Positions 2,333-62,783 of a stretch of 64,000 nucleotides of DNA are shown here, piece by piece; the first letter of the stretch is position 1; every line of letters starts with the position of its first letter. The DNA lies in NCBI GenBank assembly GCA_944323395.1, contig CALUSI010000010.1, positions 9,359-73,358 of the forward strand, in the 5' to 3' direction. Under the pieces are notes generated by a model. That model worked only from the letters and a program-made list of their open reading frames with translations, was not told the DNA's origin and did not search any database. This DNA is from Candidatus Gastranaerophilales bacterium (GTDB taxonomy: Bacteria; Cyanobacteriota; Vampirovibrionia; Gastranaerophilales; Gastranaerophilaceae). Made by a program: the position numbers and the translations under genes.

Positions 2333-3205
2333 TTATTTAGTCTTTTTATATTCTTCAGGTGCATCTTCTCTTTCTTGATTCCACCTGTCAAGTCCCATTT
2401 GTTTTCTTATTAAACCAATACCTACGTGGACTCTCCATTCATCCATTCTTAATTGTGCTGCTATGATTTTATGACAACCTATTGGAGGTAAAGGTAATAA
2501 TGGTTCATATAAGTTCTTTATTGCAAACAATTGATCAGGAGATACTGCAAGCTTTCTCTTTGGGAAAGGCAGTTTTGGAAGCATTAATTTTTGTCTTACC
2601 AAATTAATCCCAAAGAAAACTTTTCTTGGTTCCAAACCTATAGCTTGACCTATAACTTCATGCACATCCGGATTTGGTAAAGGCAAAGCCTTTTTATAAA
2701 GAATTTCAATTTGTTCTATTTGTTCTTTACTAACTAACAGTTGTTTTTGTCTTTGAGGTTTTGGTCTTCCTGCATTTGGACGAGGTCTTGAAAAACCACC
2801 CGGTCTATTGTTATTAAAATTATTTCGTTGCGGTCTCTGGTTTCTTTGTTGTCCGTCATTTCTAAATTTATTATAATTCCTTTGATAGTTGCCGCCATTT
2901 TGATTTCTGTTATCTCTTTGACGGTCATTGTATCTTGAATTGTTATTTCTGTTATATTGTTGGCGATCGGGGCGAGAGTTTCTGTCGTATGGTCTGAAAG
3001 ACTTTTCTTCTCCCTGATTGTCATTACCAAATGAGTATGAGTTCATTTGCGGAGCATCTTTTTGAGTAGAGGATGCGTTAGCGGCTTCTTGTGAAAGTTC
3101 TTCCGTATATTTTTTATCTGAATATAAACAATTCGGACAAATAACTCTCTTTGGATTTTTTGTCTCAAACTCTGCGCCGCACTTAATACACTTATTTACA
3201 TACAT
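2333..3205 (-). CDS. hypothetical protein: N-terminal zinc ribbon, N/Q/R-rich low-complexity linker, tandem duplicated C-terminal helical module
   Basis: CIKCG...CPNC ribbon and about 100 aa of N/Q/R-rich sequence. Two roughly 55-aa repeats are present (LYKKALPLPNPDVHEVIGQAIGLEPRKVFFGINLVRQKL and LYEPLLPLPPIGCHKIIAAQLRMDEWRVHVGIGLIRKQM). Its stop lies 3 nt from the rimM start. Confidence 0.6.
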   Translation of the reverse strand: MYVNKCIKCGAEFETKNPKRVICPNCLYSDKKYTEELSQEAANASSTQKDAPQMNSYSFGNDNQGEEKSFRPYDRNSRPDRQQYNRNNNSRYNDRQRDNRNQNGGNYQRNYNKFRNDGQQRNQRPQRNNFNNNRPGGFSRPRPNAGRPKPQRQKQLLVSKEQIEQIEILYKKALPLPNPDVHEVIGQAIGLEPRKVFFGINLVRQKLMLPKLPFPKRKLAVSPDQLFAIKNLYEPLLPLPPIGCHKIIAAQLRMDEWRVHVGIGLIRKQMGLDRWNQEREDAPEEYKKTK

Positions 3206-3416: not shown

Positions 3417-4448
3417 TTATTTTTTCATTTTTGAGCTTAATTGACCGCAAGCTGCATCAATATCTGCTCCTCTTTCAAGCCTTATTGTTACTTTCTTCCC
3501 TGAAGCTTCAAGTATGTATTTGAATTTTTGTATTGCTTCTTTTGTTGGTTTCTTGTAAGGGCTTTTCTCATTTTGATTATATATAATCAAGTTTACATTA
3601 CTTTTTAATTTAAGAATTGAAAGAGCAAGTTCTTTCGCATCGTTAATAGAGTCATTTATATCTTTCATTAAAACATATTCAACAGTTACTCTTCTTCCTG
3701 TTTTTTCAGTATATCTTTTTAATGTTGAAATAAGTTCATCAAATTTATATTTCTTTGCGACAGGCATGATTTCTGCTCTTTTTTCTTGGTTTGGTGCATG
3801 AAGAGAAATAGCTAATGTTGATTGAAAATCCAGTTCTGCTAATTTGTTTATTTGAGGAATTATTCCGCAGGTTGATACTGTTATTCTTCTTGCTCCTACT
3901 TGGAATTGCTCTCTGAATATTTTTATTGAATTAATTAAATTATCAAAATTTAAGAGTGGTTCACCTTGTCCCATATATACAATATTTGTGACTTTTAATC
4001 CTGTATCGGCTTGAATTAAAAATATTTGTTGTATTATTTCATCAGTGTCTAAGTTTCTTACAAATCCCAGTTTTGCTGTAGCGCAAAAACTGCATCCCAT
4101 AGGACATCCTACTTGAGTACTTATACAGGCTGTTAAATTAGCACGGTTATCAAAACGCATTAAGACTGCTTCTGCAAAATTTCCGTCTTTTAATTCAAAC
4201 AAAAATTTCATCGTTCCGTCTTTGCTTATTTGCTTTTCTTTAATTGAAATGCTGCAAAGCTCTGTCTTTTGTTTCAGAAGCTCTCTCGTTGATAAAGATA
4301 AATCTGTCATTGAATCGATATCTTTTACCGATTTTAAATATAACCAATTATATATCTGTTTGGCGCGGAACTTTGACTGCTCATTATTGAGCATAAATTC
4401 TTCAATTTCTTTTAGCGATTTGCCTACAAGTATAAATTTCTCACTCAT
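3417..4448 (-). CDS. rlmN: 23S rRNA/tRNA (adenine-C2)-methyltransferase, radical SAM
   Basis: CPMGCSFCAT radical-SAM CxxxCxxC motif, FRAKQIYNWLY N-terminal motif, and a conserved C-terminal Cys in DAACGQL. Confidence 0.92.
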   Translation of the reverse strand: MSEKFILVGKSLKEIEEFMLNNEQSKFRAKQIYNWLYLKSVKDIDSMTDLSLSTRELLKQKTELCSISIKEKQISKDGTMKFLFELKDGNFAEAVLMRFDNRANLTACISTQVGCPMGCSFCATAKLGFVRNLDTDEIIQQIFLIQADTGLKVTNIVYMGQGEPLLNFDNLINSIKIFREQFQVGARRITVSTCGIIPQINKLAELDFQSTLAISLHAPNQEKRAEIMPVAKKYKFDELISTLKRYTEKTGRRVTVEYVLMKDINDSINDAKELALSILKLKSNVNLIIYNQNEKSPYKKPTKEAIQKFKYILEASGKKVTIRLERGADIDAACGQLSSKMKK

Positions 4449-42146: not shown

Positions 42147-44879
42147 TCAATATTTATATAATATATTGTTATTTTTCATAACTGATAATAAATACCTTGA
42201 CTCCAAATCAAAATTATGACAAAAACTTTTTTGCTTTGCCTCTTCTATTGTTCTATCATTAAAATAATGAGAAGAATAATCATCTACACTTTCTTGCAGA
42301 AATGAAAAACCATAAGCACTAATTTTCTTACAAGAACATTCTTTTAACAAAAAGTTTAAAATATTAAATCCCGTAGTTGGAAAAAATACACCACTTTCCA
42401 TCTTTAAATTTCTCATAAAGTTTTTATCTAAGGACAGAGAAAGTATTTTATTCACATTAATATCCCTATGCATTATATCAAGGAAATTATATAAAATAGG
42501 AAATTGTGAATAGTCTGTAGCCCAAACACAAGCTTGATAAAAATTATCTTTAGTCATATCCTTTACATCTACTGAGCCCATACCCCTAACCCAAATATCA
42601 GTCTTTTGTCCATAATCTTCTATATAATTTTGTGTATCATAGTTATTAACTCTGATTACTAAATCATGAGAATCAATTTCATTTCCTTTTCTTTTTCCAA
42701 TTTCAGATGGTCCATTTCCGACAACAGAAACGGATTTATCTTTTACTAGATTTTTGAATGTAATAATATTTCTCAACAACTGTTCATATACAATAGTAGC
42801 TTTTTCAATATCTACATTATTATATCCGTTTTCAACTGCAAATTTAGATACAATGAAATATTTATTAATATTAACCAATCCCCAACGTTTAATATATTCT
42901 AATAGTACAGCTTTAGCTGTAACATAATCTTCATTCTCAATTAGAGTTGCAATGTATATCAATAAATCATCATTTGACAAATCTTTTAGTTTAGTATTTT
43001 GTATATATTTCTTACAAATTATTAGCATTTCTTTAGAGTTTATATGTTTAATAAATGCGTCTAATAATGATGTTGCAAAAATATATTGGCCATTTTGCAC
43101 ACTACAAAAAGTCTGAATTTGTAATCGATTTTGAAGAATTTCAATTTTTTTATTTAAATAAATGAATCTAGCTTCTGCCATTCTTAAACGTTCAGATGTC
43201 CTACATTTTTTTACTTGAAAACCTAAAATAAAATATATAGAATGTCCATCTGAAGCAGATTTATGAAATATTTTCTTTTTTATACGAATAATATTATTTT
43301 TAAAATTATTTATAAAATTATTATAAAAGGGGGTTTGTTTGTAATAATTAAAATATAAATCTTTATATGGACCGACATAATCTTTATTCCAAGGTTTTAT
43401 ATTTCCAACAAAATGTATAATTGAAGGATGTTTTTGAGCATAATTATAATCTCTAATATCATCAGGAATAAATCTTTCTCTTTTACTGTGGAACCAATGA
43501 TGAACATTCCATCTTGTTGATAATACTTTTATATTTCCTCTAAAAATATCATTTATTAAATCTTGATCCCCTAATTGATATTTATCAATAAAGTTACAAA
43601 TGTAATCATTTAATTTCTGAATATAGTTTGTATTACGCAATTTCTGTAAATCAAGTAATAAAACACCCGCATTAATATATTTAGATGTAAGCATATTATG
43701 TCCCAAACTTTTACCTAACACAATACCATTTACATCTTCACAGCCAGCAATAGGGCATTCATCCATATCTATTGAATAAAGTTTTGAAATATCATCTAAA
43801 ACAAGAGTATCCGAATCAATATATATAACCTTATCTTCATTAGGAAGAAGATGTGGTAATAATAATCTCAAAAAAGTAATATTATTTATATGTTTAGGCA
43901 CTTTTATATGTTGAAAAATATCAATTTGTTTATTAGAAACATCAATAAAACTAATTTTATAATTATTACCTTTCTTTAAATTAGTTATTTTTTTCTTTAA
44001 TTTTTGAGATATTTTCTTATTTGTTAAAATATAAAAACATAAGTAAAAATTTTTATCTACATTATTTAACATCGACAACATAGTCGTAGCACAATAAGGC
44101 AAGTATTCATTACTTGAGGATAAAACAACCGGGATTTTCTGTAATTCATTATATCTATACAAAGAGATTTCTTTTATTTTTAGTTCATTTTGGTGTTTAA
44201 ATACATATACATTTAACAAAATTTCACCAAAGAACCCTTTTATTCTTTTTTGTTCAATACAATCATTGATATTAAAATTTAGAATACTAAATAACCAATT
44301 AGAATAATCAAAAAATTGTTCTTTTTTCATTATAAATATATTGTACCAATGTATTTTATCTGTTTTTAATACTGTATCAAATGCATTTTTATATTCAGGA
44401 TAAAGATCTATTACTCTTTTGTATATATAATTAATATCGACAATATTATGTTCAACAGTCCAATGATCGATAATACTATTTTTATACTTTTTCTCTTGAT
44501 TTGAATAAGCACAAATTTTTTTAGAGACGATAATATCAAAATTTTTAATAATACTAAATATATGCTTTTTTGAAAAATTGAGTTCACTAAAATCTACAGA
44601 TTTTTCACGATTAAAATCAAATAACCGTCTATAATGCATGAATCCAACATAATTAGGAGCTCCAATTTCATTGTAATTTTTCCATACCCAATATTGTGCA
44701 GTTAGTTCACAATAAGTATCATTTTCAGAGGAAATATTATCTCCTGTATTATCGCCAATCATGTCTTGAAAAACTTCGTCTGAAATAGCTCTACCTGTCT
44801 GAATGGGAATAACAACATTTGAACTTATTAATTTATGCTTATTTTTATAACTGACAAAAATTTTTACTTGATTATTCAT
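42147..44879 (-). CDS. three-module glycosyltransferase: DUF4422-type + GT8 + C-terminal Cst/GT42-like module (paralog A)
   Basis: N-terminus IFVSYK..PIQTGRA..DNISSEN..YCELTAQYWVWKN..VGFMHYRR. GT8 with YIDSDTLVLDD and HFVG..KPW. C-terminal VSVVGNGPSEIG..IDSHDLVIRVNNY and ISAYGFSF resemble the sialyltransferase (Cst-II/GT29 L-motif) pattern. Confidence 0.75.
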   Translation of the reverse strand: MNNQVKIFVSYKNKHKLISSNVVIPIQTGRAISDEVFQDMIGDNTGDNISSENDTYCELTAQYWVWKNYNEIGAPNYVGFMHYRRLFDFNREKSVDFSELNFSKKHIFSIIKNFDIIVSKKICAYSNQEKKYKNSIIDHWTVEHNIVDINYIYKRVIDLYPEYKNAFDTVLKTDKIHWYNIFIMKKEQFFDYSNWLFSILNFNINDCIEQKRIKGFFGEILLNVYVFKHQNELKIKEISLYRYNELQKIPVVLSSSNEYLPYCATTMLSMLNNVDKNFYLCFYILTNKKISQKLKKKITNLKKGNNYKISFIDVSNKQIDIFQHIKVPKHINNITFLRLLLPHLLPNEDKVIYIDSDTLVLDDISKLYSIDMDECPIAGCEDVNGIVLGKSLGHNMLTSKYINAGVLLLDLQKLRNTNYIQKLNDYICNFIDKYQLGDQDLINDIFRGNIKVLSTRWNVHHWFHSKRERFIPDDIRDYNYAQKHPSIIHFVGNIKPWNKDYVGPYKDLYFNYYKQTPFYNNFINNFKNNIIRIKKKIFHKSASDGHSIYFILGFQVKKCRTSERLRMAEARFIYLNKKIEILQNRLQIQTFCSVQNGQYIFATSLLDAFIKHINSKEMLIICKKYIQNTKLKDLSNDDLLIYIATLIENEDYVTAKAVLLEYIKRWGLVNINKYFIVSKFAVENGYNNVDIEKATIVYEQLLRNIITFKNLVKDKSVSVVGNGPSEIGKRKGNEIDSHDLVIRVNNYDTQNYIEDYGQKTDIWVRGMGSVDVKDMTKDNFYQACVWATDYSQFPILYNFLDIMHRDINVNKILSLSLDKNFMRNLKMESGVFFPTTGFNILNFLLKECSCKKISAYGFSFLQESVDDYSSHYFNDRTIEEAKQKSFCHNFDLESRYLLSVMKNNNILYKY

Positions 44880-44938
44880 TATAAATTACCATTCTAAAAC
44901 GTATTCAAATATAATATTTACACTTTTTTTTATATTTT

Positions 44939-44966
44939 ATACAACAAATTGTATATTTTGTTGTAT
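44939..44966. repeat. left lox/dif-like dyad site (IRL): ATACAACAAA-TTGTATAT-TTTGTTGTAT
   Basis: Perfect 10-bp inverted arms around an 8-bp spacer, 17 nt upstream of the recombinase start. Its reverse complement shares a perfect 14-nt run with 45562-45575. Confidence 0.7.
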
Positions 44967-44982
44967 TGAAAGGAGCTTAAAT

Positions 44983-45525
44983 ATGTCTGTTGTCGAACCA
45001 ATAAGAAACAAAATGGTAATTAAAAACATTGAAGAATTTTTAAAAAAAAGGAAATTAAGAGATTATGTTCTATTTTGTCTGGGAATCAATTCGGGATTAA
45101 GAATTTCTGATATTTTAAATTTAAATGTGTCTGACGTAAAAAATAAGAATTATTTAAAATTATGCGAGAAGAAGACAGGTAAGTATAAAATAGTTCCTTT
45201 AAATAAAAAATTAAAAAATATTTTAAACATTTACACTCGAAATAGAGCGTTAGACGAACCTTTATTTTTAACGAAATTCAATAATAGAATGGATAGGATA
45301 ACAGCATACAGAATTATAAACAATGCTTGCAAAGAAAAAAATTTAAAAACAAATATAGGCACACATACTCTAAGAAAAACCTTCGGTTACCATTTTTATA
45401 AGGAATACAAAGACATTGCAATGTTACAAAAAATATTAAATCATTCAACACCTAGAATTACTATGAGATATATAGGAATAGATGATGAAGAAATTTGGAA
45501 TTGTTGTAAAAAATTTATTTTATAA
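44983..45525 (+). CDS. small tyrosine site-specific recombinase (catalytic domain only, FimB/FimE-like size)
   Basis: Catalytic residues are recognisable: R in GLRISD, K in KTGKYKIVPL, HxxR in HTLRKTF, H in LNHS, Y in MRYIG. At 180 aa it lacks an N-terminal core-binding domain. Confidence 0.85.
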   Translation: MSVVEPIRNKMVIKNIEEFLKKRKLRDYVLFCLGINSGLRISDILNLNVSDVKNKNYLKLCEKKTGKYKIVPLNKKLKNILNIYTRNRALDEPLFLTKFNNRMDRITAYRIINNACKEKNLKTNIGTHTLRKTFGYHFYKEYKDIAMLQKILNHSTPRITMRYIGIDDEEIWNCCKKFIL

Positions 45526-45554
45526 TTGTAAGCATGTTAGGTTTATAGTATACT
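45526..45554 (+). promoter_or_regulatory. candidate sigma70-type promoter TTGTAA-17 nt-TATACT inside the right end of the putative invertible segment
   Basis: -35 at 45526-45531, a 17-nt spacer, and -10 at 45549-45554. The predicted +1 falls at the start of IRR. Confidence 0.4.
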
Positions 45555-45558
45555 TTTT

Positions 45559-45586
45559 TTGCAACAAAATATACATAATGTTGCGT
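45559..45586. repeat. right lox/dif-like site (IRR): TTGCAACAAAATATACATAATGTTGCGT
   Basis: Dyad GCAACA...TGTTGC. Matches the reverse complement of IRL at 20/28 positions, including the perfect run CAACAAAATATACA (45562-45575). Confidence 0.7.
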
Positions 45587-45760
45587 TGAGAGTAAACAAT
45601 TTTAAAAGGTAAGTAGTATTGGATATTTTAATAAGTAAAAAGGCATCATAGCATAATCCATAGTTATAAGAGGATTCTGTTATTTTTTTTATTTATAGTG
45701 TAGTTTTATACAATGCAGTAATTGAGAGAAAAATCAATTTATTTGTGAGAGGAAATGTTA

Positions 45761-47746
45761 ATGGGAAATGATGTAAAAATTTTTGTGAGTTATAAAGAAA
45801 AACATAAAATTCTTGAAACTGGTATTATAAAACCAATTCAGACTGGACGTGCAATTGCTGATGAAGCTTTTGAAGGTATGATTGGCGATAATACAGGAGA
45901 TAATATTTCATCTGAAAACAATAAATATTGTGAGTTATCAGCACAATATTGGGTTTGGAAGCATTATGAAGAGATTGGGAATCCTGATTATGTTGGCTTT
46001 ATGCATTACCGTAGACATTTTCTTTTTAATGATAACTATCCGAAAAGTGAGAAAACTTGGTTAAACAAATCAAAGTATTATTTGTATGAGAATATAACAA
46101 ATGAATATATTCAGGAAAATTTTCAGGATGAATTAATAGAAAATTCTATAAACGGATACGATATAATTTTATGTGAACAATTCAATTTTTCAAATCATTT
46201 TGCAAAAACAATAAGAGAAAATTATTCGAAACTGTTAGGTCAAAATGTTGAAAATTATGATTTATTAATGACATTAGTAAAAAATATGTTTCCTGAATAT
46301 GAAGCTGCTGTTGAAAAGTTTAAAAAAACAAAAACAATGTGGTTATGTAATATGTTTATTATGAAAAAAGAGTTATTTTTTGAGTATAATAATTTTCTTT
46401 TCCCAATGTTGAAAAAAATTGATGAATTAGTTGATTCAAGTCATTTTACATATAATGGATTGAGATTTCTTGGCTATTTAAGCGAGTTTTTACTGAATAT
46501 ATTTATTTTACATAAAAGCTTGAATAATAATATAAATATAAATAATTTAGATATGGCTGTTTTTAACGAAGTATCAGATGAAGAATTTATTGAACCAATA
46601 TATAAAGAAAATTTTGTTCCAATAGTAATACCTTGTAGTAATCTATATGCACCATATTTAAGTGTTTGGCTTCAATCAATAATTGATAATTCTTCCAGCA
46701 ACAATAATTATGACATCATTGTTCTTCAAGATGATATTTCTATTCAAAATCAAGAAAAATTATCTTATATGCTGAAAGATCTAAATAACTTTTCATTGAG
46801 ATTTTATAATCCTAGTAAATATTTAGATAAATCAAAAATAAAAGTTGAGAAAAATTATTTAAGTTCTGTATCTTCTTATAGAATTCTTATAGATAAATTT
46901 ATGAAAGGTTATGATAAAGCAATTATATCTGAAGTTGATATGATTTTTAAGTCAGACATTATGGATTTATATAAAATAGATATAAAGAATTATCCAATAG
47001 CTGCGATTATCGACCCACATTTCATCAGAGGATATAACATTACGCCAAATAGAGAATATTATGCAATTGAAGAACTAAAACTAAAAGATAAATATAAATA
47101 TGTAAATACAGGTTTAATGATTTTAAACATTACTGAATTTTCTAAAAATAACTATTCAGATAAGTTGGTAGAATTGTTGTCTTCAGGAACATATATTTGT
47201 CTTGAGCAAGATGCGATGAATGAATTGTTTAATGGGAACATTTACATATTAGACTTAAAATGGAATTTTCTTGTCACAGACGAACAAAGAGAACAACTTG
47301 TAAAAAGTATGCCTAAAGATCTTTATGATAGCTGGATTGCAGCAAAATCTTCCTATTATGTGATACATTGGTGCGGTTCAAGAAAGCCTTGGATCAATCC
47401 AGATGAGTATTATGCATATAAGTGGTGGGAAATTGCAAAAAGGACGCCATTCTATGAAGAAATAATATATCAAAAAATAAATACAAATATTTCAAATTCA
47501 AAATCTGCTCCAATTCAAAATACAGAAAAGGTTATTAAACAGTTTATACAAAATCCTGTTGATTATTCTTTATTAACCAGTGTTTTATTCCAAAGAAAAA
47601 TATATTTAAAGTATTGGAAATATAAAATTTTGCAAAATTTTGTGTTTGGAAAGAAACGTGATGAATATAGAGCTAAAAAGTATAAATATAAAAATAGATG
47701 TTTACAAGTTAAAGATTTCATTAATAGGTATAAAAATGCTTACTAG
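45761..47746 (+). CDS. DUF4422-type + GT8 two-module glycosyltransferase (paralog B)
   Basis: Same N-terminal signature as paralog A. The GT8 region carries an E-V-D variant of the DxD motif. ATG 45761 has better spacing from GAGAGG (45747-45752) than ATG 45755. Confidence 0.82.
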   Translation: MGNDVKIFVSYKEKHKILETGIIKPIQTGRAIADEAFEGMIGDNTGDNISSENNKYCELSAQYWVWKHYEEIGNPDYVGFMHYRRHFLFNDNYPKSEKTWLNKSKYYLYENITNEYIQENFQDELIENSINGYDIILCEQFNFSNHFAKTIRENYSKLLGQNVENYDLLMTLVKNMFPEYEAAVEKFKKTKTMWLCNMFIMKKELFFEYNNFLFPMLKKIDELVDSSHFTYNGLRFLGYLSEFLLNIFILHKSLNNNININNLDMAVFNEVSDEEFIEPIYKENFVPIVIPCSNLYAPYLSVWLQSIIDNSSSNNNYDIIVLQDDISIQNQEKLSYMLKDLNNFSLRFYNPSKYLDKSKIKVEKNYLSSVSSYRILIDKFMKGYDKAIISEVDMIFKSDIMDLYKIDIKNYPIAAIIDPHFIRGYNITPNREYYAIEELKLKDKYKYVNTGLMILNITEFSKNNYSDKLVELLSSGTYICLEQDAMNELFNGNIYILDLKWNFLVTDEQREQLVKSMPKDLYDSWIAAKSSYYVIHWCGSRKPWINPDEYYAYKWWEIAKRTPFYEEIIYQKINTNISNSKSAPIQNTEKVIKQFIQNPVDYSLLTSVLFQRKIYLKYWKYKILQNFVFGKKRDEYRAKKYKYKNRCLQVKDFINRYKNAY

Positions 47747-48854
47747 TTTTATTTATAGAAAAAAAGATGATGGTATAAATAAAAAAGTTTATATTTTAGG
47801 GTTGCCAATATATTCAAAAAGAAGAAAAGACGGATATATCAAACGTTCTTATTTCTTTTCATTGTTGCAAATAAGAGAATATGACTATGAAAAAGTATAT
47901 TATTTTTGTAAATTAAAAGTATATAAAAATTTGAATATAACCAAATTACTTATTGATTTTCAAAATAAGAATGAACTTATTACAAAACTAGAAAATAACA
48001 TACTTATAAAAAATAATAATGAAATACTTAAAAAGAATAAAAATGATATTCTAGCAATTATAAAAAATGAAATAAAGGAGAATTTTTCTTTACTGGAAAA
48101 TAGTTTGTATGGTAAGGTTAAAACTTTAATTCAGTGTCAAAATGTCCATAAAGAAACATTCGGACCATACAAGAATGCTTTTCTCGGCAGTGATGTTGTT
48201 CTGGTTGCTTCAGGACCTACAGCAAAATTTCATATTCCAAAAGATGGAGTAATATATGTTGGCGTAAATAATGCTTGTTTGCTGGATAATGTCAAATTGG
48301 ATTATCTTTTCTGTCAGGATTTTTATATGGATGAAGAAAAAAGGAATGCTATTGTTAATTATAGACCAGATAAATGCAAGAAATTTTTTGGAAGAATACC
48401 TGATGAGAGAATTGCTGAATGTAGAAAAAGTGCTCAAGATGCTCATGTTACAAGATGTCCCAAGTGCTTTATAGAAAGAGCAAATGCGAAAGAATATTAT
48501 GTTGATGAAAAAATGAAATTTACGTTATGCATGGATATTGAGAATGAGCCGTTAAGTGCTTGGGGAATAGTTTTTCCTGCAATGCAGTTTATTTTACATG
48601 CACATCCCAAAAGAATATATTTGGTAGGCTGTGATTGTTCCTCCGGTTTCTTTTATAAATCAGAAGTAACTTTTGATAATTCGCCAATGAAACGAGGCTG
48701 GAAAATTTTAGCAGAACATATAAAAGAATTTTATCCAGATATAGAAGTAATTTCTTTAAATCCTGTTGGGTTAAGAGGATTATTTAAAGATGAATATTCT
48801 GAAGACTATCTTGCTAGCTTAAGTGAAGAAGAGAGGTCTTGTATAAGTGTATAA
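47736..48854 (+). CDS. hypothetical protein with C-terminal Cst/DUF115(MptE)-like nucleotide-sugar transferase-like module
   Basis: VVLVASGPTAKF...VGVNNA...LFCQD and IYLVGCDCS resemble the GNGPS/SGID pattern of Cst-type transferases. The track start (47640) lies inside the upstream gene; ATG 47736 overlaps its stop by 11 nt. Confidence 0.5.
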   Translation: MLTSFIYRKKDDGINKKVYILGLPIYSKRRKDGYIKRSYFFSLLQIREYDYEKVYYFCKLKVYKNLNITKLLIDFQNKNELITKLENNILIKNNNEILKKNKNDILAIIKNEIKENFSLLENSLYGKVKTLIQCQNVHKETFGPYKNAFLGSDVVLVASGPTAKFHIPKDGVIYVGVNNACLLDNVKLDYLFCQDFYMDEEKRNAIVNYRPDKCKKFFGRIPDERIAECRKSAQDAHVTRCPKCFIERANAKEYYVDEKMKFTLCMDIENEPLSAWGIVFPAMQFILHAHPKRIYLVGCDCSSGFFYKSEVTFDNSPMKRGWKILAEHIKEFYPDIEVISLNPVGLRGLFKDEYSEDYLASLSEEERSCISV

Positions 48855-49563
48855 AATTATATTCTCTGATTTTGACGGAGTATTGTTTGATTCTGTAAAA
48901 GAAGCATATATATTATCTAGATATGCGTATGATAATATAGACTTCAAGTCAGAAATAAATGAAATAGAATATCAGCTTTTTAAAAAATATAGATATTTAA
49001 TTACTCATAGTTGGCAGTTCTATATAATTTTTAAGTTAATCAAACAAAAGATAAATGATGAAGAGTTTGAATTACATTATAATAATCTTATTTCGGCCAA
49101 AATAAAGAAAGAAGCATCAAAATTTGATGAAAAATATGTACAAGGAAGAGAATTATTATTAAAAACGGATTATAAATTTTGGGATAGCTTAGATATTCCA
49201 TTTGATTTTTTTTATGAATTAAAAAAAATAGTTGATAAAAAAGATAATAAGATTTTTATTCTTACAAATAAAAAAAAGTTACCAGTATCGAATAAATTAA
49301 AAAAATATGGTGCAGATAAGTTTAATATATTTGCGCAAGAAGATTTAACAAAATATAAAAATAAAGCCGAATTTATAAACGAATATATGTATATAAATAA
49401 GCTTAAAAATGCTATTCTAATTGAAGATAGTATAGATAACATAAATGAATGTAATAAATATCAAAATATAAAAACGATTCTGGTAGACTGGGGATATATT
49501 TCTCCCAAAGAGAAAGGCAAAAGTCTAAAAGATGTATTAAAAATAATACAGGAGGTTATATGA
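48847..49563 (+). CDS. HAD-superfamily hydrolase (probable sugar-phosphate phosphatase)
   Basis: Motif I FSDFDGVLFDS, motif II ILTNK, and a C-terminal EDS acidic motif. GTG start overlaps the upstream stop by 8 nt. Confidence 0.7.
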   Translation: MYKIIFSDFDGVLFDSVKEAYILSRYAYDNIDFKSEINEIEYQLFKKYRYLITHSWQFYIIFKLIKQKINDEEFELHYNNLISAKIKKEASKFDEKYVQGRELLLKTDYKFWDSLDIPFDFFYELKKIVDKKDNKIFILTNKKKLPVSNKLKKYGADKFNIFAQEDLTKYKNKAEFINEYMYINKLKNAILIEDSIDNINECNKYQNIKTILVDWGYISPKEKGKSLKDVLKIIQEVI

Positions 49564-50306
49564 AAATAATAGGTATAATACCAGCAAGATATCAGTCAAG
49601 CCGATTTGAAGGAAAACCACTTGCCGATATATTAGGGAAACCTATGATATGGTGGGTTTATCAGCAAGCAATAAAAGTGAAATATTTAGATGAAGTTTAC
49701 GTAGCTACAGATGATGTAAGAATAGAAAAAGCCTGTAAAGATAATAATATTAATGTTATTATGACCTCCTCTGAACATAAGACAGGAACTGACAGAATTG
49801 GTGAAGTTGCTCGAAAAATAAAAGCTGATTTATATGTTAATATTCAAGGCGATGAACCAATGATTGAGCCTGAAACAATATCAAAGGCCATTATTCCTTT
49901 TCTTGAAAATAAAAATTTGCAAGTATCTAATTTAATGACTAAAATTAAAGATCCTGTTGATGTTGTTAACTTCACAGTTCCAAAAGTAATTACAAATAAA
50001 GATAATATAGGAATATATTTAACTAGAAGTACAACTCCATATCCAAAAGGCAGTATAGATTATTCATATTATAAGCAAGTATGTGTATATGGGTTTACTC
50101 CTGAAGCATTAGAGTTTTATTGTAATAATCCAAGAGGAAAAATAGAACAAATAGAAGATATAGAAATATTGAGATTTATAGAGGCCGGTTATAAGGTTCA
50201 ATATATAGAAGTAGATAGTGATACAGTAGCAGTTGATACAAAAAAAGATTTAGAAAAAGTAAGATTCTTAATGAAAGAAAAATATAATAGAGGAATAAAT
50301 GAATAA
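49560..50306 (+). CDS. kdsB: 3-deoxy-manno-octulosonate (or related ulosonic acid) cytidylyltransferase
   Basis: IIPARYQSSRFEGKPLADILGKPMIWWV...TGTDRIGEVA...NIQGDEPMIEPETI closely parallels E. coli KdsB motifs as recalled. Confidence 0.85.
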   Translation: MKIIGIIPARYQSSRFEGKPLADILGKPMIWWVYQQAIKVKYLDEVYVATDDVRIEKACKDNNINVIMTSSEHKTGTDRIGEVARKIKADLYVNIQGDEPMIEPETISKAIIPFLENKNLQVSNLMTKIKDPVDVVNFTVPKVITNKDNIGIYLTRSTTPYPKGSIDYSYYKQVCVYGFTPEALEFYCNNPRGKIEQIEDIEILRFIEAGYKVQYIEVDSDTVAVDTKKDLEKVRFLMKEKYNRGINE

Positions 50307-51852
50307 TATTAGAATTTTAGACTGTACCCTAAGAGACGGTGGATACGTCAATAACTGGAATTTTAAAGAAAATAATATAAAATTTATAATAGAACATTTA
50401 GTTCAATCAGGATGTGACTATATTGAGTGCGGTTTTCTAAAAAAAATACCTTATGATAAAGATAAATCATTATTTAACTGTTTTCAACAATTAGACAATA
50501 TACTACCAAATACATCTAAAACAAAATTTACCCTTATGATTAACTATGGAGAAATTCCAATAGAGGATATTCCTTCTTGTAATACTAAAATAAATCTTAG
50601 AATAGTATTTAAAAAAGAGAAAAGAAATGAGGCTGTTGAATATTGTAAGAAACTAGTGGCAAAGGGATATAGCATATTTGTAAATCCAATGAGTTCAAAT
50701 ACATATTCAAGTGCAGAGTTTTTAGATTTAATAAATAAAGTAAATGAGATAAATCCTGTAGGATTCACAATTGTAGATACAACAGGCGCAATGAGCAAAA
50801 AAGATACGTTAGCTTTATATTATTTAATTGAAAATAACTTGAATAAAAATATTGCTCTATGCTTTCATTCGCATAATAATTTACAGCTATCTTTTTCAAA
50901 TGCACAAATATTGATGGAACAAAATACAAATAGGACAATTATTATTGATTCAACTGTTTTTGGAATGGGGCGTGGAGCGGGAAATCTTTGTACCGAACTT
51001 TTAGTAAAATATATTAATGATAATCATAATGGTAATTATGAATTAATTCCAATACTAAAAATAATAGATGAACAAATTGCAAAAATATTTGCTGTTTCGC
51101 CTTGGGGTTATTCTGTTCCGTATTATATAGCAGCGTCTATGCATTGTCACCCAAACTATGCAAAGTATTTAATAGACAAACAAACTGTTCCTGTCGAACT
51201 TATAACCCAAATATTAAATAAAATTCCATATGATAAGAGAGGAACATATGATGTAAATGTAGTTGAAGATTTATACTATTCAACATTAAATTGTTTGGTC
51301 GATGATGCTGAATCCTTAGAAAAATTAACAAAATTATTAAAAGATAAGAAAATTCTTGTTCTTGCATCTGGCAAAAGTATTGTTGATGAAGAAGAAAAAA
51401 TTAATAATTTTATTGAGAATGAAAAACCTTTTATTATTTCATTAAATTATATTCCAAAAAACTATAATCCGAATGTTGTTTTTATAACAAATATAAAAAG
51501 ATACAATAGTATAGGCAAAATTAATATACCTTGTATTACAACATCTAACGTTAAACAAGATTCAGACTATAAATTAAATTATTTATCTTATGTTGATGAA
51601 AGTAGTGTTGGAGACAATGTAGCTTTAATTTTGTTCCGTCTTCTTATAAAAATAGGCATTAGAAGTATTTCAATTGCTGGATTTGATGGATATTCTGAAA
51701 ATTCTCAAGAAAACTATGCAGATACGGATTTAATCAATCTTGAATCAATTAATGATATTTATATAAAAAATCAGAAAATAAAGAACTATTTGAATAGTAT
51801 AGAAGGTAAATTGGAAATTAATTTTATAACAAAGTCCATATATATAAATTAA
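50299..51852 (+). CDS. DRE-TIM metallolyase (HMGL-like, DmpG-type pyruvate aldolase) fused to a C-terminal Cst/DUF115-like module
   Basis: N-terminal ILDCTLRDGGY, FHSHNNLQLS, and the DSTVFGMGRGAGN metal/substrate motifs of HMGL-like aldolases. The C-terminal 170 aa carries ILVLASGKS and ISIAGFDGYS. Confidence 0.65.
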   Translation: MNNIRILDCTLRDGGYVNNWNFKENNIKFIIEHLVQSGCDYIECGFLKKIPYDKDKSLFNCFQQLDNILPNTSKTKFTLMINYGEIPIEDIPSCNTKINLRIVFKKEKRNEAVEYCKKLVAKGYSIFVNPMSSNTYSSAEFLDLINKVNEINPVGFTIVDTTGAMSKKDTLALYYLIENNLNKNIALCFHSHNNLQLSFSNAQILMEQNTNRTIIIDSTVFGMGRGAGNLCTELLVKYINDNHNGNYELIPILKIIDEQIAKIFAVSPWGYSVPYYIAASMHCHPNYAKYLIDKQTVPVELITQILNKIPYDKRGTYDVNVVEDLYYSTLNCLVDDAESLEKLTKLLKDKKILVLASGKSIVDEEEKINNFIENEKPFIISLNYIPKNYNPNVVFITNIKRYNSIGKINIPCITTSNVKQDSDYKLNYLSYVDESSVGDNVALILFRLLIKIGIRSISIAGFDGYSENSQENYADTDLINLESINDIYIKNQKIKNYLNSIEGKLEINFITKSIYIN

Positions 51853-51970: not shown

Positions 51971-53011
51971 ATGCAGAAGATAAAACTTTTTGTTTCTTAT
52001 AAAGACGAACATAGAATAATAAAATCAGATATTATTACCCCTATCCAGACTGGGCGAGCAAGTGCAAACTCCGTTTTTAAGGGAATGCTTGGTGATGATA
52101 CAGGAGAAAATATTTCGATTGAAAATAATAAATATTGTGAATTAACTGCACAATACTGGGTATGGAAAAATTATGAAAAAATTGGCAATCCTGAGTATGT
52201 AGGATTTATGCACTATCGCAGGCATTTTATATTTGATAAAAAATTTGATATATCGAGCAAAGAAAGATGGCTTCCAGGTATTGATATCTTTATGACTGAA
52301 ACTTTTGATGAAGAATGTAATAAAAACCTTATAGATGAAAATATAATAAAGGTTATAAATGAAAATGCCGATTGTTATGCAATAAAACCTTATGATGTCC
52401 GTTTATATTTCAATAATAATTTATATATGAAGGAACACTATATTTCCACTATTAATGGTGCAAAACGTATCATATATGATACTCTTTACAATGTAGTTAT
52501 AGAATTATATCCAGAATATAAGACTATCATAGATAAATTTACTTATGGTTCAAAAATGAATTGTTGCAACATGTTTATTATGAAAAAAGATTTATTTTTT
52601 GAATACTCAGATTTCTGTTTTAAAATTTTAAAAGAAATTGACAAACGAATTAATTGTTATTTATGTAGTGATGAAAAACAACGTTATCTTGGATATATAG
52701 GTGAGTATCTATTAACGCTTTACATAATTCATCTTGAAGAGCAAAAGAAAAATGTAAAATATTTAAATACACTATTAATAAAAGATATTGATGAAAAAAA
52801 AGTAAGAAAATTTTTTAGTATTCAAAAGACGCCTAGACATTATATTTATAGTATTGGTGGAATAAAAATTAGAATAAAACGCGCATATCAAAAAGCAAAA
52901 TTAGATTTAATATTAGAAAAACTGGAACTACAGCAAAATTATATTAATAGACTTGAAAATAAGATAACAGAGCTACAAGAAGAGTTAATTGTAAAAAAAC
53001 ATAGAAATTAA
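51971..53011 (+). CDS. DUF4422-type glycosyltransferase-like protein with coiled-coil tail (paralog C)
   Basis: Same N-terminal signature (LFVSYK..PIQTGRA..ENISIENNKYCELTAQYWVWKN..VGFMHYRR). ATG 51971 is preceded by AGAGAG. Confidence 0.8.
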   Translation: MQKIKLFVSYKDEHRIIKSDIITPIQTGRASANSVFKGMLGDDTGENISIENNKYCELTAQYWVWKNYEKIGNPEYVGFMHYRRHFIFDKKFDISSKERWLPGIDIFMTETFDEECNKNLIDENIIKVINENADCYAIKPYDVRLYFNNNLYMKEHYISTINGAKRIIYDTLYNVVIELYPEYKTIIDKFTYGSKMNCCNMFIMKKDLFFEYSDFCFKILKEIDKRINCYLCSDEKQRYLGYIGEYLLTLYIIHLEEQKKNVKYLNTLLIKDIDEKKVRKFFSIQKTPRHYIYSIGGIKIRIKRAYQKAKLDLILEKLELQQNYINRLENKITELQEELIVKKHRN

Positions 53012-53152: not shown

Positions 53153-55036
53153 ATGCCAAAAATTAAGATATTTGTTTCTTATAAAGATAAGCATAAAATA
53201 ATAAAGTCAGATATTATTACTCCAATTCAAACAGGTCGTGCTATAGCTGAAGAAGTTTTTGAAGGGATGATTGGTGATGATACAGGTGATAATATTTCAG
53301 TTTTAAATAACAGATTTTGTGAAACAACAGCAATATATTGGGTTTGGAAAAATTATGAACAAATCGAGAATCCAGATTATGTTGGATTTATGCATTATCG
53401 CAGGCATTTTTTGTATGGAGAAAAAAATTATAACACTAACTATTATGGATTAGTAAAATATGAAAAACTAAATCAAGAATATTTAGAAGAGAATATAACT
53501 GATGAGAATATAAAAAATATAGTAGAGAAATATGATGTAATTATTCCAAGACGTATTACAAATTTTGAAATTAATGGTTTAAAGAATAATTATAAACAAT
53601 ATAAAAAATCTCATAATATTGATGATTTGGACAAAGCACTTAATATTCTTACAGATAAATATCCTGAATATAAAAAATATGTAGAAGAATATAAAAATAG
53701 CAATTATGCATATTACTTAAATATGTTCATAATGAGAAAAGATATATTTTTTGAATATTGTAATTGGCTATTTTCTATATTATTTGAATTGCGTTATACT
53801 ATTATTCCAACCTCTGACAATTATCAAAATAGAGTTATTGGCTTTATTTCAGAGAGATTGACAGATATATTTTTTAGGAAGCTGTATGATGACAAATACA
53901 GAATGAAAGAATTACCAATCAGTTATATAGAGTGTGTAGAAGAAAATTCCGACATTGAAAAATCAAATCTTGGGGAAAACAATATTATACCAATTGTTTT
54001 TTCAACCGATTTTAAGTTCTTCCCATATTTAAGTGTATGTTTACAATCTATTAAAGATAATATAAATTCTAACTATAAATATGAAATAAATATTTTAGAA
54101 AGAGGGCTTACTCCTAATAATAAAAATTTTTTAAAGAATCAAATGAGCTCTGATAACTTTGTTATTAAATTTTATAATGTTGAAAAGTTATTAGAGAAGT
54201 TTTCTTCACCACAAAATTTACAACATATTTCTGTTGACACATATTCCAGATTTTTTATCCCATCAATACTAAACGCTTATGAAAAATGCATTTATTTAGA
54301 TGGAGATACAATAGTTAGGGATGATTTAGCAAAGTTATATCAGACTCCTTTAAACGGAAAAACAATTGGGGCCTCTGTTTGCGCAGTAATTTCAGCTTGG
54401 ACTAATATAGATAAAGAAATAAAAGATTATATAAATAAAACAATTGGCATAAGCGATAATTCAAAATATTTTCAAGCCGGTGTACTAATTCTCAATTTAA
54501 AGAAAATGAGAGAAAATAATTCACAAGAAAAACTTATAGAACTAGCTAGTAAAAAAAAGTGGAAATTTGCTGATCAAGATATTCTGAATAAACTATATAA
54601 AGATGATGTTCAGTATATAGATATGGCTTGGAATTATGAATATGAACACAGTGATATGCGAAAAGCGCAATATAAGGAAATGATGCCGCTAAGTATATTA
54701 CAGGAATATATTAACGCTAAAAAGAATCCTAAAATTATACATTTTCAAGGGCAAAGAAAACCATGGCTGTGGCAAGATGAAGAATTTGCTTCAATATGGT
54801 GGAATTATGCAAGAAAATCAAGTTTATATGAGCAATTTATAGTAAACATGATAGATAATCGAAAAAATTATCAAATGGAAAATATTAAACTTTATAAAAA
54901 ATATAAATTTAAGTTTTTAAAATATAAAATACTACGAAATGTTTTTTGGGGAAAGATTCGTAAAAAGTATATAATAAAAAAGAATGTGTATAAAGATAAA
55001 TTAATAGAGATAAAAAGATTAATAGGAAATTTATAA
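53153..55036 (+). CDS. DUF4422-type + GT8 two-module glycosyltransferase (paralog D)
   Basis: N-terminal signature as in A-C. GT8 with YLDGDTIVRDD and IHFQGQRKPW. Basic amphipathic C-terminal tail like paralog B. Confidence 0.82.
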   Translation: MPKIKIFVSYKDKHKIIKSDIITPIQTGRAIAEEVFEGMIGDDTGDNISVLNNRFCETTAIYWVWKNYEQIENPDYVGFMHYRRHFLYGEKNYNTNYYGLVKYEKLNQEYLEENITDENIKNIVEKYDVIIPRRITNFEINGLKNNYKQYKKSHNIDDLDKALNILTDKYPEYKKYVEEYKNSNYAYYLNMFIMRKDIFFEYCNWLFSILFELRYTIIPTSDNYQNRVIGFISERLTDIFFRKLYDDKYRMKELPISYIECVEENSDIEKSNLGENNIIPIVFSTDFKFFPYLSVCLQSIKDNINSNYKYEINILERGLTPNNKNFLKNQMSSDNFVIKFYNVEKLLEKFSSPQNLQHISVDTYSRFFIPSILNAYEKCIYLDGDTIVRDDLAKLYQTPLNGKTIGASVCAVISAWTNIDKEIKDYINKTIGISDNSKYFQAGVLILNLKKMRENNSQEKLIELASKKKWKFADQDILNKLYKDDVQYIDMAWNYEYEHSDMRKAQYKEMMPLSILQEYINAKKNPKIIHFQGQRKPWLWQDEEFASIWWNYARKSSLYEQFIVNMIDNRKNYQMENIKLYKKYKFKFLKYKILRNVFWGKIRKKYIIKKNVYKDKLIEIKRLIGNL

Positions 55037-61916: not shown

Positions 61917-62783
61917 ATGTTGATTCATTATATTTCTCAGTATATTGAATATTTGGAGATTGAATGCGGATTGGCATTAAATACCATTCTTGCATATAGA
62001 AGTGATCTTTATTCATTAGCCAATTTTCTTCAGGAACTTGGCATTAATAATTTCAGTGAAATTCAAAGATTACATATAAATCTATATATAAAGAGACTTT
62101 ATGATAGAAAATATACTCCAAGAAGTATTACAAGAGAGATTGCATCTATAAAAGGTTTCTTTAAATGGTTAAGTATAAATGAATTGATAAAACATAACCC
62201 TGCATTATCAATAGAACAACCAAAACTTCCCAAAAGGTTGCCAAAGGTTTTATCTATGAAAGAAATATCTGAACTTCTAGATACAAACATGACTGTATTA
62301 GATAAAGCAATACTTGAACTATTATATGCTGCAGGTCTAAGAGTTTCAGAACTGGCTGATATTCAAAATAACAACATAGACTTAAATTCTAAATATATAA
62401 GATGTATAGGAAAAGGTTCAAAAGAAAGAATCGTTCCAATTGGTAATAAAGCATGCATTGCAATAAAAAAATATTTAAAAGAACGGGAATATATAGTAAA
62501 AAAATTTAATTTAAATACAAAATATTTATTTATAAAAGACAATGGAAAAAAAATAACAAGACAAGATATATATGTTTTTATTAGAGAACTTGGTAAAAAT
62601 ATCAATAAAGAAATATCACCACATACAATAAGACACTCTTTTGCAACACATCTATTGGAGAATGGTGCTGATTTAAGAGTAGTACAAGAACTTCTTGGTC
62701 ATAGTGATGTTTCTACAACACAACTATATACGCATATTAGCAAAAAAAGACTCAAAGATATCTATTTTTCTATTAATAAATGA
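61917..62783 (+). CDS. XerC/XerD-type tyrosine recombinase (chromosome dimer resolution)
   Basis: Full two-domain architecture. Has ARSDLYSL-like [53 protein letters not shown]. Confidence 0.88.

Follow-up and report, generated by a model that had tools for sequence, protein, structure and literature searches.

This study found that a 648-bp segment lying between two divergent sugar-transferase genes of a Candidatus Gastranaerophilales bacterium very likely works as a genuine flip-switch for genes of surface sugars. The segment occupies positions 44939 to 45586 of a stretch of 64,000 nucleotides (nt) from contig CALUSI010000010.1 (assembly GCA_944323395.1); this whole stretch is referred to as the window, and all positions are counted within it unless a contig is named. 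A gene for a small tyrosine recombinase lies inside the segment, which is bounded by two inverted sites, IRL and IRR, and carries an outward promoter-like motif at its right end. Site-specific recombination at IRL and IRR very probably inverts the segment, as it has done in sister loci. The features of the segment and of the genes on either side are as follows.

42147–44879, minus strand: gene A, a glycosyltransferase of 910 amino acids (aa) with DUF4422, GT8 and GT29-like domains; its ATG lies 59 nt outside IRL
44939–44966, no strand: IRL, ATACAACAAATTGTATATTTTGTTGTAT, with 10-bp inverted arms ATACAACAAA and TTTGTTGTAT flanking the spacer TTGTATAT
44970–44975, plus strand: Shine-Dalgarno sequence of the recombinase gene (AAGGAG), 7 nt ahead of its ATG and a few bases inside IRL
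44983–45525, plus strand: tyrosine recombinase gene, 180 aa, catalytic domain only, with the full R-K-HxxR-H-Y set
45526–45554, plus strand: outward promoter-like motif TTGTAA-17-TATACT, beginning immediately behind the stop codon and ending 4 nt short of IRR
45559–45586, no strand: IRR, TTGCAACAAAATATACATAATGTTGCGT, whose reverse complement matches IRL at 20 of 28 positions
45761–47746, plus strand: gene B, with DUF4422 and GT8 domains
45761–51852, plus strand: B operon, consisting of B and four overlapping genes, faced by the promoter motif in the window orientation

Recombination sites

A first-pass annotation of the window had described IRL, IRR, their arms and a shared 14-nt core, and each was found at the same coordinates when the sequence was re-read. 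The core, CAACAAAATATACA, lies at 44950–44963 on the minus strand and at 45562–45575 on the plus strand. Without mismatch it occurs exactly twice in the window, on opposite strands, in agreement with the inverted orientation assigned to the sites. Each site is also a dyad by itself. A 7-bp stretch of the spacer, TGTATAT, is the same in IRL and IRR (as its reverse complement in IRR), and a repeat search returned the pair as 31 nt with 77% complementarity. This search revealed no partner of IRR in the B leader, i.e., no small downstream element of the kind found in distant relatives. The region 44800–45850 contained no terminator-like site and no Rfam match. A search of JGI metagenomes with the site pattern CAACAWWNTGTATATTTTGTTG gave 28 matches, which were rejected as chance occurrences; none of them adjoins a recombinase homologue.

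Flipped forms in gut metagenomes

An exact-protein look-up of the window recombinase returned 10 contigs, all from gut metagenomes. The evidence presented here consists of assembled contigs, and the flipped and unflipped forms come from different samples. In L004, L005, L007 and L008, the left side is of the window type (gene A and the recombinase gene), joined to a different right flank, designated X. The X flank of L005, L007 and L008 departs completely from the window at 45625; L004 has the window orientation with the X-type flank and ends 30 nt past IRR. In L006, from another sample, the X flank appears as its reverse complement and passes through the core into the 5' end of the recombinase gene. 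The breakpoint maps to IRL, and the end of the contig is the exact start of IRR. L006 shares an identical recombinase protein and a common right flank with L005, L007 and L008, and its junction is, apart from a 5-nt deletion described below, the product expected from inversion between IRL and IRR.

A second junction was found in L105, whose recombinase (P0002) is 89% identical to that of the window. This contig runs from the 3' end of the recombinase gene through the promoter motif to GCAACAAAATATACA, which is joined to ATTTGTTGTATTAAGG and the reverse complement of the L104 left flank. Compared with L104, the junction is exactly conservative, with the crossover inside a 13-nt stretch common to both sites, and the breakpoint maps to the site homologous to IRR. 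At the locus of recombinase P0008 (71% identical), L149 and L153 represent both flipped junctions relative to L146, L147, L148 and L150–L152. A search of related genomes for both orientations, as the first-pass annotation had proposed, therefore succeeded at loci with identical, 89% identical and 71% identical recombinases, with breakpoints in the core at the first two. The 14-nt core is too short to join contigs at k87 or k141 (SPAdes), which indicates that the flipped joins are not assembly chimeras.

The recombinase and its family

The recombinase matched the PF00589 profile at 102 bits (cut-off 27.1, E=3e-29) over residues 13–169, and R40, K64/K67, H128, R131, H154 and Y163 were invariant among 33 homologues. 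This bears out the earlier description of a 180-aa, catalytic-domain-only tyrosine recombinase in which the R, K, HxxR, H and Y residues are all present. The catalytic residues align to those of XerC-like 4a8e. In structure alignments, the protein covers just the catalytic domain of the XerC-like protein (residues 118–275 of 292 aa) and of XerA; a separate N-terminal core-binding domain is absent. Phage_integrase was the sole matching family in the profile search, and no resolvase-type serine domain was detected. The match in size to FimB and FimE that had been noted holds, as FimB/FimE-type invertases are similarly small; the protein is not a member of that family, since the scores against NF007371 and NF007370 (56.9 and 45.3 bits) were far under the cut-offs of 222 and 221. 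The enzyme is likewise outside the Xer equivalogs (XerC, XerD, XerA, XerS and XerH): the best score, 93.9 bits for XerA, compares with a cut-off of 220, and their two-domain architecture is lacking.

A family search revealed 7817 homologues. Among the best 120 of the 7817, nearly all are about 180 aa long, and the few named ones belong to Candidatus Gastranaerophilaceae. A scan of species-representative genomes found 80 loci, almost all in metagenome-assembled Gastranaerophilales/Melainabacteria and often several per genome. The best inverted repeat was directly downstream of the recombinase gene in 31 of 65 genome loci, with its first arm 20–70 nt and its second arm 150–390 nt past the stop codon. 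Such an arrangement, a recombinase gene with a small invertible element behind it, is the classical one. One such element, the 173-bp element of P0105, is inverted in L017, L021 and L022 relative to L015, L016, L018, L019 and L020 (99% identity). The occurrence of both orientations (3 versus 5 contigs) indicates that the family consists of working DNA invertases tied to glycan loci. In all, flips were found in three independent lineages in which the recombinase gene lies inside the element and in a fourth lineage of the small-element type.

In the subclade of the window (at least 63% identity), the left site is located upstream of the recombinase gene, and the gene is thus inside the element. 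This architecture was found in the window, L103/L104, L107/L110, L112, L146, L154 and L023. Divergent glycosyltransferase operons flank a lone recombinase gene in every examined relative at 71–89% identity and in L023 (63%), so that the relatives with this divergent layout stand at 89, 81, 78, 71 and 63% identity. The exception is L154 (66%), whose left neighbour is co-directional. The flanking families vary by locus and include GT2, LicD, GT8, acyltransferase, cytidylyltransferase, NeuB and TOD1-like proteins. Paralogy of A and B, which the first-pass annotation had put forward, holds at the window locus, where the two genes share 5' homology; it is not essential to the arrangement, since unrelated glycosyltransferase families flank the recombinase in several relatives.

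Other properties of these loci are also shared. The asymmetric spacer is equal in both sites of each locus, being TGTATAT in most and TGTATGA in L112; a paired change of this kind fits, since strand exchange by tyrosine recombinases requires matching spacers. The left gene starts 28–110 nt from the site in most loci (about 150 nt in L104 by gene calls), which leaves little or no room for an independent left promoter. At the P0008 locus, the leader, the ribosome-binding site and the first 16 codons are identical in the two flanking operons, with about 38 nt from site to ATG. These symmetric flanks fit two outputs fed by one movable promoter. In L146, the 116-nt repeat arms (2885–3000 and 3574–3689 of the contig) comprise the site, the leader, the ribosome-binding site and 16 codons of both GT8 genes; beyond them, 86% identity continues over about 400 nt, which suggests gene conversion across the switch. 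Identical or near-identical recombinases were also found beside different operons (L103 versus L104, L107 versus L110, and the window versus L005), and the operons around the switch appear to be replaced often.

Many distant relatives show a further arrangement, in which the small element is followed by a divergent second recombinase paralog and then by sugar-nucleotide and glycosyltransferase genes. These second paralogs are 150–180 aa long and 27–38% identical (L011, 4891–5346; L015, 4773–5315; L030, L034, L038, L053 and L070–L072). The second recombinase would be expressed in one orientation only, which recalls the orientation-dependent control of FimE. A family member with 56% identity (L036) is present in Helicobacter sp. 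13S00401-1 (NZ_MLAR01000003.1), with a downstream inverted repeat. The family is otherwise restricted to Gastranaerophilales, and the Helicobacter copy may reflect horizontal transfer.

Promoter-like motifs

The TTGTAA-17-TATACT motif is present at 45526–45554 and points outward toward B, as had been noted. In the window, L103, L107, L112 and L146, the best -35/-10 pair starts right after the stop codon of the recombinase gene and has a 17-nt spacer. The boxes vary among these five loci (TTGTAA, TTGCAA or TTGAAT, and TATACT or TATGAT), the sequence between them has diverged, and the distance from the end of the motif to the site is 3–8 nt. L023 has TTGTCT-17-TAATAT, shifted two bases further from the stop codon. 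The position of the motif is kept in relatives at 71–89% identity. The motif is more likely than not a functional outward promoter. The recombinase gene is upstream of, and co-directional with, the promoter-faced operon in either orientation.

A further promoter-like sequence is located on the left flank and points into the segment.

44886–44915, plus strand: TTACCA-18-TATAAT, candidate promoter of the recombinase gene

This sequence, with 10 of 12 matching positions, is the best promoter-like match in the region and is a candidate for the promoter of the recombinase gene in the window orientation. A conserved promoter for this gene was sought across the loci; candidates occur on both flanks, and none is kept from locus to locus.

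Flanking genes and the glycan cluster

A and B had been annotated as a pair of DUF4422-GT8 proteins. Both domains were found in both proteins; A has in addition the GT29-like domain. After B, the operon encodes proteins of 372 and 238 aa (family unassigned), a CTP_transf_3 cytidylyltransferase (49560–50306) and an HMGL-like enzyme. The locus is part of a glycan cluster that extends from 31.5 to 63 kb on the same strand, in which gene A is the sole minus-strand gene. The cluster contains GT2, UDP-galactopyranose mutase, nucleotidyltransferase, dehydratase, epimerase and cytidylyltransferase genes, two further DUF4422 proteins and an ATP-binding cassette (ABC) exporter. The far end of the cluster holds a second tyrosine recombinase open reading frame (61917–62783, plus strand, 288 aa). 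Over residues 11–167 it shares 25% identity with the 180-aa enzyme, and its length suggests a two-domain Xer or integrase type.

The 5' ends of A and B form an inverted repeat of 198 nt at 77% identity, including an exact stretch of 32 nt (44731–44762 and 45878–45909). The exact stretch was considered as a crossover site and rejected: it encodes MIGDNTGDNIS and is kept at 28–29 of 32 positions in the other two DUF4422 paralogs. All four DUF4422 genes share the stretch in near-identical form (also 52084–52115 and 53266–53297), exact between A and B and coding for M(I/L)GD(N/D)TG(D/E)NIS. The stretch accounts for the ending of Logan contigs (k=31) at this point.

One short element outside the segment is conserved among the right flanks.

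45606–45625, plus strand: conserved leader 20-mer AAGGTAAGTAGTATTGGATA, 20 nt outside IRR; strains with another right operon diverge directly after it

The 20-mer is retained even where the downstream operon is wholly different (L005, L103, L104, L107 and L110). Its role could be that of a leader or processivity element, or it could mark a hotspot of flank replacement. A symmetric leader element was sought on the left flanks; just vague (A/G)AGTAG-like resemblances were found there, which are unconvincing. A separate CTP_transf_3 gene on either side of the switch is common in relatives.

Proposed mechanism and alternatives

The arrangement is best read as a self-contained invertible cassette, comprising IRL, a ribosome-binding site, the 180-aa recombinase gene, a sigma-70-type outward promoter and the inverted IRR, that alternates expression between A and the B operon; as a whole, this reading is probable. 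Recombinase monomers would bind the CAACA-type arms of both sites, and strand exchange within the asymmetric TGTATAT spacer would flip the segment as a whole. In the orientation of the window, B and its translationally coupled operon would be faced by the promoter and by any transcription that runs on from the recombinase gene. In the flipped orientation, transcription would initiate inside the site and read a leader of about 85–90 nt (predicted start to ATG) into A, a gene whose own upstream region seems too short for a good promoter. In this way, the population would alternate glycosyltransferases and, as a result, the structure of a surface polysaccharide.

A number of observations weigh against this reading or some part of it. 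Taken alone, the IRL/IRR repeat is only moderately significant: dinucleotide-type shuffling produced an exact inverted match of at least 14 nt from one intergenic region to the other in 2 of 1000 trials, and a 28-mer match equal to that of IRL and IRR in 8 of 200. The promoter scan in this AT-rich DNA (25% G+C) was at chance level (14 sites versus 11.5 expected), so the motif by itself proves nothing. With both signals weak on composition alone, the case rests on the comparison with related loci. There, the inversion claimed between IRL and IRR is seen in sister loci (L006, L105 and L149/L153) and not with the exact flanks of the window: the arrangement of A, recombinase gene and B was aligned in 12 contig placements, every one in the window orientation. 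Exact-protein look-ups of A, B and a 99% identical recombinase (P0001) also gave contigs in that orientation throughout, two of the look-ups adding no new contig. As the two forms come from different samples, they reflect inversion in the history of strains rather than switching within one population. The inverted repeat at the P0008 locus is 116 nt long and perfect, which makes it harder to discount homologous recombination or an ambiguous assembly, and this locus is a weaker case when taken alone. L006 carries a 5-nt deletion (TATTG) in the inner arm of its junction. The deletion (in the region 3690–3725 of the contig, homologous to 44955–44975 of the window) lies beside the ribosome-binding site of the recombinase gene, and L006 could be a naturally phase-locked variant.

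Other points concern the two outputs. The B leader is 175 nt long, with room for a promoter of its own, and leaders in relatives reach about 360 nt. The sole cytidylyltransferase detected in the cluster sits in the B operon, and the sialyltransferase-like GT29 domain of A may need a cytidine monophosphate (CMP)-sugar donor. If A needs this enzyme, a state with A on and the B operon fully off is functionally questionable. Given this enzyme and the B leader, strictly mutually exclusive expression of A and B is a doubtful proposition, its chances falling a little short of even.

These same features favour a one-sided ON/OFF switch, in which A needs the flipped promoter and the B operon has its own leader promoter, or the reverse. 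Right leaders of 175–360 nt with a conserved element would suit it, as would the cytidylyltransferase; in L154, moreover, the co-directional left neighbour means that a recombinase-inside element can act there solely as an ON/OFF switch. However, the identical 116-nt flanks of P0008, with their short distance from site to ATG, point to symmetric dependence on the internal promoter, and the divergent layout is repeated in most of the close relatives examined. A one-sided switch seems rather unlikely. Much less credence is due to homologous recombination between the paralogous 5' ends of A and B, comparable to that of the sap genes of Campylobacter fetus, with the recombinase incidental. The 198-nt repeat and the perfect repeat of P0008 would provide substrates, but the breakpoints of L006 and L105 are in the 13–14-nt core beside the recombinase gene, outside the gene homology; L103, L104, L107 and L112 have no paralogous pair at their flanks, and the 32-nt stretch is a conserved protein motif that also occurs in the other two DUF4422 genes. 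This explanation is very improbable.

The enzyme might also be an integrase or Xer-type protein of a small mobile cassette, or one that exchanges glycosyltransferase cassettes, with the dyads as attachment or dif-like sites. Its best profile matches are indeed Xer-type catalytic domains, and the same recombinases occur beside different operons (B versus X, L103 versus L104, L107 versus L110). However, all of these scores are far under the family cut-offs, the sites are inverted, and the rearrangements actually seen are inversions. The divergence of flanks starts away from the site edge (in the window at 45625, and between L103 and L104 within the 5' part of the recombinase gene), which fits ordinary homologous replacement. 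A role of this kind is accordingly judged highly unlikely. Also hard to sustain is the view that the dyads serve only to regulate the recombinase gene, as operators or RNA hairpins, and that the flipped contigs are assembly chimeras. It would account for the dyad symmetry of each site and for the moderate significance of the repeat, whereas independent flips in several lineages, a core unable to join contigs at the k values used, and the failure to find a terminator-like site all speak against it; its probability is very small.

The invertible cassette that alternates A and the B operon thus remains the preferred reading. A more far-reaching version can be proposed tentatively: a 0.65-kb two-state selector between two exclusive divergent glycan operons, belonging to a large, domain-minimal invertase family with one switch per glycan locus.

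If the reading is correct, it would be the first evidence of programmed DNA inversion that varies surface glycans in Gastranaerophilales, uncultured non-photosynthetic relatives of cyanobacteria in human and animal guts. This would have a bearing on immune evasion, phage evasion and the persistence of strains in the gut. Under the more far-reaching version, Gastranaerophilales (Melainabacteria) would have a switch of its own for every glycan locus, whereas Bacteroides relies on a single master invertase. As noted above, the family is large; it is also domain-minimal, with short identifiable sites and several copies per genome, and its compact recombinase-inside version lends itself in principle to trial as a genetic toggle part. 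Inversion also accounts for assembly breaks at these loci in Gastranaerophilales genomes.

Comparison with known systems

The layout recalls the H segment of Salmonella Hin, known from flagellar phase variation, where the invertible DNA includes the gene of its recombinase together with a promoter that reads outward from one end. The invertase Hin is of the serine type and depends on an enhancer to which Fis binds; the promoter of the segment serves one side, and the alternative flagellin is controlled via a repressor. The window segment likewise contains a recombinase gene and an outward promoter-like motif, but the recombinase is of the tyrosine type and target genes are present on both sides. 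In the sap locus of C. fetus, one promoter on an invertible segment picks between opposed homologous genes. That inversion is RecA-dependent and uses long conserved 5' gene regions, without a dedicated site-specific recombinase; in the present case, the breakpoints of L006 and L105 are in the 14-nt core and not in long 5' gene homology.

Polysaccharide loci under invertible promoters are known from other gut bacteria, namely the capsular polysaccharide loci of Bacteroides (Mpi), those of the Tsr tyrosine invertases, and Akkermansia cps1. Gastranaerophilales genomes hold several copies of the present recombinase family beside glycan genes. In Bacteroides, one global serine invertase acts on many loci, whereas here a small tyrosine recombinase is dedicated to each locus and, in the subclade of the window, its gene lies inside the element. 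In fimS of Escherichia coli, with FimB and FimE, a small tyrosine recombinase (about 180–200 aa) also inverts a promoter segment between short inverted repeats. For the T1 antigen of Salmonella, a FimB-like switch, STM0716, governs a surface polysaccharide cluster (PMC11294581). The distant relatives in the present family, with a gene and a 150–350-bp element, have that very layout. In the fimS and T1-antigen systems, the recombinase gene lies outside an element of about 270–314 bp that turns one operon ON or OFF; in the window, it lies inside, between divergent operons, and the enzyme is not a FimB/FimE family member by profile score.

That a recombinase gene can lie within an invertible region has been described before (PMC9881135), and in type I restriction-modification hsdS loci a tyrosine recombinase gene between inverted hsdS genes moves with the inversion (PMC7672463, PMC9881135). 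There, coding sequence for target-recognition domains is reshuffled, whereas here the sites are intergenic and a promoter-like motif moves. The literature search, within the library consulted, found no paper on invertible promoters in Gastranaerophilales/Melainabacteria and none on a two-way invertible promoter between divergent operons.

In sum, the segment is well supported as an invertible cassette, and its role as a two-way selector is plausible but unproven. It belongs to a known kind, the invertible promoter switch; what appears new is a Hin-like layout combined with a tyrosine recombinase in Gastranaerophilales, with targets on both sides.

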